Origin: a virus
Lineage: Duplodnaviria > Heunggongvirae > Uroviricota > Caudoviricetes
Length of the DNA stretch: 13,979 nucleotides
Direction: 5' to 3' (one strand)
IMG/VR virus record: IMGVR_UViG_2737471865_000007
In this document: positions 10,529 through 10,834 of the stretch, in pieces
How the letters are laid out: the number at the start of each line of letters is the position of its first letter
Position numbering within the stretch: position 1 is the first letter of the stretch
Translations under genes and position numbers: made by a program
Notes under the pieces: generated by a model
The model's input: only the letters and a program-made list of their open reading frames with translations
Told to the model about the DNA's origin: nothing
Database searches by the model: none

Positions 10529-10711
10529 CACCTGTTGGGATTTCCCGCACCTGTATAAGAATACAGTCATACTTTCCCGTTATACAGTCATACACATGAT
10601 GGAATAACCTGTTGGAATTTCCTACAGGTTTAACCATACACAGGAGCTAACCTGTTGGAATTTCCTACTACTACCTGTCGGTATTTCCCACAGGTACCTG
10701 TTGGAATTTCC
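10529..10711. repeat. Iteron cluster: five copies of the 15-bp core CCTGTTGG(A/G)ATTTCC; putative replication origin or operator array
   Basis: Cores at 10531, 10609, 10651, 10674 (variant CCTGTCGGTATTTCC) and 10697; the last three are spaced 23 bp apart; two copies extend to the palindromic form CCTGT...ACAGG; AT-rich tract follows at 10712-10750. Confidence 0.65.
10549..10568. promoter_or_regulatory. Second LexA/SOS box embedded in the iteron cluster
   Basis: CTGTATAAGAATACAG (10551-10566) matches CTGTAT-N4-ATACAG of the LexA consensus at 14 of 16 positions. Confidence 0.5.
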
Positions 10712-10834
10712 CACACTAATAGATAAAGAGAATAGATTAATAAAAAGATACCCCCCTAACCCCCCAGGGGAATGGGGAGGGATCAGAGAGTGGGGAAGGT
10801 TTTCTAAGGGAAAAGCTTAACCCACAAATGAAAG

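Follow-up and report, generated by a model that had tools for sequence, protein, structure and literature searches.

Layout of the probable origin region

We analysed a stretch of DNA of 13,979 nucleotides (nt) from the IMG/VR virus record IMGVR_UViG_2737471865_000007 (hereinafter the window), and within it an array of phased repeats that an earlier note on this DNA had read as an iteron-type origin or a multi-site operator with an embedded LexA box. The window holds a whole replicon, as joining its end to its start (13703-13979 plus 1-212) restores a 162-amino-acid (aa) open reading frame (ORF) known in relatives; it represents a complete phage-like plasmid of Escherichia coli, 13,979 bp long, in circularly permuted form. 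The region around the array, together with the two winged-helix or winged-helix-like proteins encoded downstream of it, comprises the following features:

10530-10552, plus strand: iteron 1 (ACCTGTTGGGATTTCCCGCACCT), outlying and degenerate, self-complementary at 12 of 23 positions
10549-10568, unstranded: LexA-like (SOS) box ACCTGTATAAGAATACAGTC, with the core CTGT-N8-ACAG at 10551-10566
10561-10572 and 10582-10593, plus strand: two copies of ATACAGTCATAC, the first overlapping the right half of the LexA-like box
10607-10629, plus strand: iteron 2 (ACCTGTTGGAATTTCCTACAGGT), a near-perfect palindrome, self-complementary at 20 of 23 positions
10650-10672, plus strand: iteron 3, self-complementary at 14 of 23 positions
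10673-10695, plus strand: iteron 4 (ACCTGTCGGTATTTCCCACAGGT), self-complementary at 18 of 23 positions
10696-10718, plus strand: iteron 5, adjoining the AT-rich tract, self-complementary at 14 of 23 positions
10716-10750, unstranded: AT-rich tract CTAATAGATAAAGAGAATAGATTAATAAAAAGATA of three 12-13-mers (approximately), the presumed DNA-unwinding element
10751-10781, unstranded: GC-rich inverted repeat (CCCCCCTAACCCCCCAGGGGAATGGGGAGGG), immediately to the right of the AT-rich tract and conserved in relatives
10826-11010, unstranded: small-hairpin array of 51-55-nt modules flanked by TGTGTG(T)GGGG, with three mini-hairpins per module
11983-12501, plus strand: second winged-helix-like protein, 172 aa, with a weak MarR match only
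12520-13419, plus strand: Rep, a 299-aa winged-helix initiator and the putative iteron binder, the only candidate initiator found

The five repeats, the CTGT-N8-ACAG box and the AT-rich tract are thus all present at the coordinates that had been given for them. The copies of ACCTGTTGGAATTTCCCAC begin at 10530, 10607, 10650, 10673 and 10696 (spacing 77, 43, 23 and 23), and a scan of the window allowing up to three mismatches returned six matches, the sixth being the minus-strand reading of the palindromic copy 2; 0.01 matches were expected by chance, and none of 200 dinucleotide-preserving shuffles attained six. The 15-mer CCTGTTGGAATTTCC is exact at 10608, 10651 and 10697, with one mismatch at 10531 and two at 10674. 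Taken as 23-mers, the repeat units have the dyad-symmetric form ACCTGT-N11-ACAGGT (random 23-mers of the window are self-complementary at a mean of 5.5 positions), and the iterons of relatives are likewise palindromic. Outside 10530-10718 we found no iterons, except for a three-mismatch match within the tape-measure gene, nor any other repeat array on the plasmid. The right edge of iteron 1 overlaps the left edge of the LexA-like box, and relatives with other Rep types retain a similar unit leftmost in the origin region; iteron 1 of the window is part of a left-hand module conserved in plasmids of every Rep type. No significance of the duplicated ATACAGTCATAC is supported: even the nearest relatives lack the duplication, as in the loci L001, L002 and L014-L016 the second copy reads ATACGG. 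A looser (C/T)AGTCAT motif reappears in other origin variants.

The repeats within the AT-rich tract are marked by AATAGAT at 10718 and 10731 and AAAAGAT at 10743, and in duplex stability the segment 10712-10751 comes third from lowest among the 40-mers of the plasmid (rank 19 of 13,940 windows). Both CTAATAGATAAA and AATAGA are conserved in all relatives and in the distant relative L033. As for a rival origin elsewhere on the plasmid, the two least stable 40-mers (13414 and 13621) lack surrounding repeats and were rejected. Between 10300 and 10800 there is no perfect DnaA box TTATNCACA; the only approximation is TCATACACA at 10588, with one mismatch. From the GC-rich inverted repeat rightwards, the DNA has a marked folding potential (z-scores for 10750-11090: plus strand -6.9, minus strand -5.6). 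Compensatory changes occur in 7 of 14 pairs among five variants of the hairpin module, whose copy number in relatives ranges from 0 to 3 or more; these modules may be components of the origin, perhaps ssi-like priming signals, or make up a separate structured RNA.

Rep and its pairing with the iterons

The ORF list starts rep at a TTG at 12505, and its homologues begin at the ATG at 12520. Among the plasmid's products no other replication or partition protein was recognised. In profile searches Rep matched PHROG replication-initiator and "O-like" families (E 8e-8 to 1e-4; the "O-like" ones 1e-4 to 3e-6), whereas Pfam gave only a weak HTH_36 match, with neither Rep_3 nor Phage_rep_O, NCBIfam nothing meaningful, and tblastn against phages no match. 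A Rep profile run against 1.8 billion representative proteins retrieved only about ten clusters at E < 1e-10, and its remoter matches cover the winged-helix core only. In 50 of these remoter relatives the domains recognised were HTH_36 (49 of 50), DnaD_N (25), RP-C (7), RepL (5) and Phage_rep_O (5). The protein is modular: its N-terminal winged-helix domain exists in six or more allelic forms, and a linker rich in Q, P and E leads from it to a C-terminal domain with three forms.

For a comparison of iterons and initiators we assembled loci for ten Rep alleles, together with plasmid records and metagenome loci, of which 22 were readable for both the iterons and the Rep recognition helix; the iteron type was read from the last three 23-bp-phased iterons beside the conserved CTAATAGATAAA anchor. 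Six iteron types pair with six recognition-helix variants, without exception across the 22 loci:

Type A: helix KDRGKIVSAIKS, iteron ACCTGTTGGAATTTCC
Type B/C1: helix SRPT(I/V)I(K/N)(A/S)IKS, iteron ACCTGTAAAATATTTTTAC
Type C2: helix TEKTVRSAIKT, iteron ACCCCGGTAAATATTTCCGG
Type D1: helix SDRKIIESIKT, iteron ACCCCTGAAGATTTCTCAC
Type D2: helix SDRKIRDSIKS, iteron ACCCCGGAAGATTTCTCCGG
Type E: helix TPKTVRTAIHS, iteron ACC(N)GGGTAAAAATTACCGG

Other parts of these loci assort independently of this pairing, namely the type of the Rep C-terminal domain, the genes intervening between origin and rep, the LexA-box variant and the hairpin modules. For instance, iteron type A is seen with all three Rep C-terminal types, and the gene preceding rep in type-A loci may be absent or code for a product of 121, 166 or 172 aa. 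Helices with an arginine at one position (KIRDS, TVRSA, TVRTA) go with CCGG half-sites, and those with isoleucine or valine (KIIES, TIIKA, KIVSA) with CTGT or CCTG. Types D1 and D2 (L008 and L026 set against L024 and L025) show little other difference, and the pair looks like a near single-residue switch of specificity.

The distant relatives L033 and L036, with Reps at about 50% identity and a different gene order, have their analogous iteron arrays, phased at 22-23 bp, immediately downstream of rep. In L033 the palindromic iteron ACCACCCGAAAATATCGGGTAC occurs in six copies (spacing 97, 30, 22, 22 and 22), followed by the same CTAATAGAT...AATAGAT tract (CTAATAGATTAAAGAATAGATTAAG); L036 has the likewise palindromic AGTGTAAAAATTTCAC (spacing 43, 23 and 22). 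Because both keep the array despite the changed gene order, it stays beside this Rep family, as does the AT-rich tract in L033, and such staying with the initiator is the behaviour expected of an origin. It had been suggested that the iteron binder is one of the winged-helix proteins encoded 1.3-2 kb downstream. The match between helix and iteron upholds this for the product of 12520-13419 and not for that of 11983-12501: the 172-aa protein has no similarity to Rep, it is absent from L001 even though the iterons there are the same, and a 166-aa counterpart of it is found alongside iterons of types A, B/C1 and D1.

In L018, L028, L006 and L030, remnant arrays of other Rep specificities lie upstream of the active one. 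That of L018 (about -450 to -320 from the anchor) comprises most of a type-A module, including a second LexA box, and in L028 a D1 array (-340 to -250) lies ahead of the type-E array. Such remnants suggest repeated replacement of a module formed by the Rep N-terminal domain and the iterons, with a boundary at the unwinding element; they might also titrate the Reps of competing plasmids.

LexA-like boxes and the weighing of alternatives

Between iteron copies 1 and 2 lies CTGTATAAGAATACAG (10551-10566), the sole CTGT-N8-ACAG in the window. We scored potential LexA sites with a matrix built from 18 published E. coli boxes (PMC3009722, Table 4). With a heterology index of 7.7, ACCTGTATAAGAATACAGTC is the best site of the plasmid and comparable to the uvrD, dinG and cho boxes (the 18 published boxes range from 0.6 to 12.6 in leave-one-out scoring), and only 4 of 300 shuffles contained a site as good. 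The near-perfect LexA box that had been noticed between iterons 1 and 2 is thus real as a sequence feature, with a score in the range of validated boxes. A box-like second unit at 10570-10589, with a heterology index of 16.4, is not a LexA site.

The LexA-like box is present beside iteron 1 in 24 of the 30 loci scanned, in three or four sequence variants with an invariant core; the variants in relatives (CTGTGTGTTTATACAG, CTGTGTGCTTATACAG and CTGTAAATCCATACAG) all keep CTGT...ATACAG. Of the 20 positions of the third, CTGTAAATCCATACAG, 18 agree with the published ftsK box; the box of the window has ACCTGTATAA in common with the dinI box. The eight core positions are invariant, while six of the eight interior ones vary. 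The distance from the start of ACCTGT in an iteron-like unit to its start in the box is invariably 19 nt, and in the window some 3-4 bp are common to the box and the right arm of iteron 1. The box is found with Rep types A, B, C1, C2, D1, D2 and some E; because it is thus kept with Reps of other specificities, including those with CCGG half-sites, we take it not to be a Rep site. Relatives with variant 3 have a good leftward promoter (TTGACA-17-TACCGT), and the box begins 1 nt after its -10 element. In the literature searched we found no precedent for a LexA site within an iteron origin.

A further LexA-like box lies on the late promoter of the same plasmid:

7750-7769 (within 7750-7786), minus strand: LexA-like box TACTGTATATTGTATCAGTA, overlapping the -10 element of a leftward promoter

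This near-consensus promoter (TTGACA-17-TACAAT, 7786 to 7758, with an upstream TG) stands before the operon of a 111-aa protein and the capsid. The heterology index of its box is 8.6 in the window and 6.0 in relatives whose -10 element is TATAAT. Four loci (L001, L009, L011 and L012) retain the promoter, and the first three of them also the box, which in L012 has ATGT for CTGT. For the origin box, this second site is the strongest support from context. The placement of this box suggests that host LexA directly represses the structural genes; the plasmid appears to use host LexA as a damage sensor, and SOS control of the element is credible.

Taken together, the segment 10530-10781 is very probably the replication origin of the phage-like plasmid. 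The best explanation of the region as a whole, to which we give a probability of about 0.72, is an iteron origin served by Rep, with an AT-rich opening region and a LexA operator abutting iteron 1. Its character would probably be that of lambda-like dyad-symmetric iterons joined to an unrelated winged-helix initiator and an embedded LexA operator. The proposal of an iteron-type origin holds good, as the repeats match the Rep helix type for type and adjoin the most origin-like AT-rich tract. The anatomy, the match of iteron type to the DNA-binding helix of Rep, the persistence of the module in distant relatives and the quality and conserved position of the LexA-like box are direct observations; that Rep binds the iterons, that the origin fires here, that LexA binds and that it affects replication are inferred, as is the direct gating of replication by the SOS response that the earlier note had envisaged. 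Binding of LexA to the origin box seems to us somewhat better than an even chance, and an effect of that binding on replication is doubtful.

A number of points weigh against this reading. As to the lambda-like character, the matches of Rep to PHROG replication initiators are modest, and its matches in the PDB are generic winged-helix proteins; no DnaA box and no helicase-loader gene were found. The minimum of the detrended cumulative GC skew, at 10766, speaks for an origin here but weakly, since runs of C and of G nearby, together with the orientation of genes, confound the signal. The distance between origin and rep is only 1.2-1.8 kb, so that linkage could explain part of the association of iteron and helix types, and many of the covariation loci are closely related. 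As for the LexA-like box, the bare CTGT-N8-ACAG pattern is not rare (at least one in 37 of 200 shuffles), and its left end coincides with the iteron-type ACCTGT start and its right end with the recurring motif ACAGTCAT. At the origin box of the window no convincing sigma-70 promoter was found by consensus, by weight matrix across the variants or by manual reading, the candidates there being weak (TTGGGA-16-AAGAAT rightward and TGTATA-17-TATTCT leftward). The box is absent in L004, L026, L027, L030 and L031 and in the distant L033 and L036 (L023 is too short to judge); because several relatives and the distant ones lack it, it is dispensable for replication. Any control by LexA could moreover not be all-or-none, because the plasmid must replicate in unstressed cells.

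Much of this would be expected if the box were a by-product of the iteron-type ACCTGT start and of a recurring (AT)ACAGTCAT motif to which some other factor, or none, binds, in an ordinary iteron origin with no link to SOS, an explanation that we hold to be a substantial, if lesser, possibility. It would account for the frequency of the bare pattern in shuffles, for the shared beginning with the iterons, for an end in ACAGTCAT (which recurs nearby without a partner CTGT), for the lack of an overlapping promoter in the window and for the lack of a box in five or six related plasmids and both distant relatives. It fits less well with a matrix score equal to those of the validated uvrD, dinG and cho boxes and as rarely matched in shuffles as stated above, with the resemblances of variant 3 to the ftsK box and of the window's box to that of dinI, or with a core that stays invariant while most interior positions vary. 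Nor does it predict that the box be kept with CCGG-recognising Reps, or that another LexA-like box should lie over the late-promoter -10 element of the same plasmid.

Two further explanations concern the array itself. It could be a multi-site transcriptional operator at which a winged-helix repressor or immunity factor controls a promoter within or next to the AT-rich tract, from which the strongly structured RNA on its right would be made, replication starting elsewhere; one database source indeed labels a homologue "winged helix-turn-helix transcription repressor", the PDB matches are transcription factors, weak promoter-like hexamers lie across the last iteron and the AT-rich tract, and the adjacent 340 nt fold far better than shuffles. 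We nevertheless judge this improbable: the plasmid is an autonomous replicon without any other initiator gene or repeat array, PHROG places Rep with replication initiators and its remote relatives have DnaD_N, RP-C, RepL and Phage_rep_O domains, the array lies beside rep in both distant relatives despite their gene order (with the AT-rich motif too in L033), and the layout is that of ori-lambda. The two roles are also compatible, as initiators often repress transcription as well. Less probable still is a partition (centromere-like) site bound by a winged-helix protein, as tubC is by TubR. Phased direct repeats and a small winged-helix binder are typical of some centromeres, and TubR is among the weak PDB matches of Rep (E 0.13), but the plasmid encodes no partner NTPase of the ParA, ParM or TubZ type, a conserved tract of AT-rich 13-mers with a GC-rich hairpin, as found alongside, is characteristic of origins and not of centromeres, and Rep's best family matches are replication initiators.

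Mechanism, known systems and the plasmid family

Under the preferred reading of a Rep-served iteron origin, Rep dimers would bind the dyad-symmetric iterons. The working array would consist of the four iterons at 10607-10718 (spacing 43, 23 and 23), with the fifth, degenerate one 77 bp to the left. The Rep-iteron complex would then open the adjacent 35-40-bp AT-rich tract at 10716-10750, as lambda O does at ori-lambda, and presumably recruit the helicase and primase of the host, because no loader gene was detected on the plasmid. LexA at 10549-10568 would most likely restrain the origin or an origin-proximal promoter in undamaged cells, and its release in the SOS response would allow the DNA to be amplified during expression of the structural genes. 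Negative supercoiling from a promoter directed away from the origin could activate the latter, which is how the downstream ri(c) promoters act in lambda. Alternatively, LexA may compete with Rep at the outlying iteron 1, a possibility raised by the overlap of the box with the right arm of that iteron. Carried furthest, LexA might be a built-in component of the origin which, overlapping iteron 1, limits Rep-iteron assembly from a fixed position or blocks an origin-activating promoter directed away from the origin; its cleavage in the SOS response would switch the element directly from plasmid mode to amplification mode in step with LexA-controlled capsid expression, a repressor-free counterpart of the lysis-lysogeny switch in which late promoter and origin alike respond to the damage signal of the host. 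We put this last scheme forward tentatively, and consider it less likely than not.

The closest parallel in layout is the origin of phage lambda. Placed side by side, ori-lambda has four annotated 18-bp iterons (spacing 20, 24 and 23), an AT-rich region of about 40 bp and a palindrome. The plasmid likewise presents about 19-bp dyad-symmetric iterons at a spacing of about 20-24 bp, or roughly two helical turns, then an AT-rich tract of about 40 bp and then a palindrome, its GC-rich inverted repeat at 10751-10781 occupying the position of the palindrome in the lambda origin. Neither origin has a DnaA box. In lambdoid phages the iterons co-vary with the N-terminal DNA-binding part of O, and the C-terminal part is exchangeable; the iterons of the plasmid family co-vary in the same manner with the N-terminal part of the initiator, its C-terminal part being exchangeable as in the lambdoid O/ori types. 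The iterons of lambda are inverted repeats bound by O dimers, and firing of its origin requires transcriptional activation (PMC5043065). Against the analogy stands the comparison of the Rep profile with lambda O, which gave an hhalign probability of 0.1. Unlike that of lambda, moreover, the plasmid's origin lies outside the initiator gene, 1.8 kb upstream of rep (just downstream of it in the distant relatives), no P-like helicase loader was detected on the plasmid, the plasmid is stably maintained, and a LexA box is embedded in the array. The origin thus resembles lambda in layout and iteron symmetry and is not a member of its family by descent.

In Rep_3-type plasmids (pSC101, F, P1, R6K and RK2) the iterons are mostly direct, asymmetric and bound by monomers, and the origins contain sites for DnaA and for nucleoid proteins; as a rule, sites for host factors are scattered among the iterons (PMC5043065). 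With these the present plasmid shares a plasmid-encoded initiator, phased iterons beside an AT-rich unwinding element containing 13-mer-like repeats, and a further, outlying iteron with a possible role in the control of copy number. Its palindromic iterons, the lack of a Rep_3 domain and of a DnaA box, and the lack of an iteron-like operator at the rep-operon promoter set it apart, and it is not a Rep_3-type replicon.

For the use of LexA, the nearest comparison is GIL01 of Bacillus thuringiensis, a linear plasmid prophage in which host LexA maintains lysogeny at replication- and late-gene promoters. LexA acts there at promoters together with the phage protein gp7, and no box inside an iteron origin has been described for it. 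Both are extrachromosomal phage-like elements without an obvious dedicated repressor, and the present plasmid has its LexA-like box on the late promoter. Unlike GIL01, it has a LexA-like box in the origin, and the host, the protein-primed linear replication and the proteins of GIL01 are all unrelated to its own. The plasmid is also like P4 and the Acinetobacter phage Aci01-2-Phanie in being an element of 11-14 kb with a few capsid and tail genes remotely related to those of large myophages. P4 replicates by the alpha primase-helicase with its own ori and crr sites; unlike it and the mini-phages, the present element is maintained as a plasmid with an iteron origin.

The nearest database relatives of the window are complete circular E. 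coli plasmids of 13.2-13.7 kb. PLSDB entries for this 13-14-kb family (MOB-suite typing) are classed as non-mobilizable only and are otherwise untyped, and in the literature searched we found nothing on it. The contigs that carry the 98 Rep homologues are all about 13.3-14.4 kb long and come from E. coli, Shigella or E. albertii; this narrow range suggests a size constraint such as packaging. One "plasmid" record of 39.6 kb (NZ_CP043822.1, L009) is a head-to-tail trimer of a unit of about 13.5 kb with some genes disrupted, either a real multimer or a long-read assembly artefact. The structural proteins encoded are a major capsid, a tape-measure, a Dit-like tail and a tail-completion protein. 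The nearest phage relatives of the tape-measure and major capsid (1448-3568 and 5890-6927) are in rV5-like (Vequintavirinae) myophages, at only about 25% identity, and it is possible that the plasmid is their satellite, or else a strongly diverged mini-phage. A nucleotide search with the origin region gave no match in phage records, and the AT-rich/C-run anchor pattern gave none in the genome contigs and viral contigs scanned; in metagenomes it recovered four loci, one of them (L010) spurious.

Between 9181 and 11460 there is no convincing gene, and the conservation of ORFs there on both strands is due to conserved DNA and not to coding. A 56-aa minus-strand ORF at 10467-10637, which spans the LexA-like box, was rejected as a gene, being intact in only 7 of 21 loci at 47-96% identity. 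Five TATTTA(A/T)NNNN repeats in 11-bp phasing (9225-9290) directly follow a terminator at 9202-9222, and about 1.2 kb of ORF-poor DNA (9230-10470) is 75-100% conserved family-wide; a candidate small ORF at 9339-9479 (46 aa) is retained in 25 loci. Further right, a 49-aa hydrophobic ORF (11463-11612; WP_157794903.1 in relatives) has its own strong promoter-like site (TTGACA-17-TAAGAT, 11407-11435). A near-consensus site, TTGACA-17-TAAAAT at 11599-11627, stands upstream of a 69-aa gene, the 172-aa gene and rep, and probably drives these three as an operon; no iteron-like operator was found at it. The window contains no tRNA or tmRNA genes, and an Rfam scan of its whole length gave only a sub-threshold ctRNA match, on the terminator at 3666-3706.

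These results define a replicon for widespread and hitherto untyped 13-14-kb phage-like plasmids of E. coli, Shigella and E. albertii. The family amounts to a natural experiment in initiator-DNA recognition, with at least six specificities of Rep helix and iteron, apparent correspondences of arginine versus isoleucine in the helix with G versus T in the iteron, and superseded arrays left upstream; its Rep/iteron types should help in understanding plasmid incompatibility and in building orthogonal replicons. Should the LexA box be functional, the SOS repressor of the host would sit inside a replication origin, and DNA damage, including that caused by antibiotics, would be linked directly to the copy number of the plasmid and possibly to its packaging and spread.

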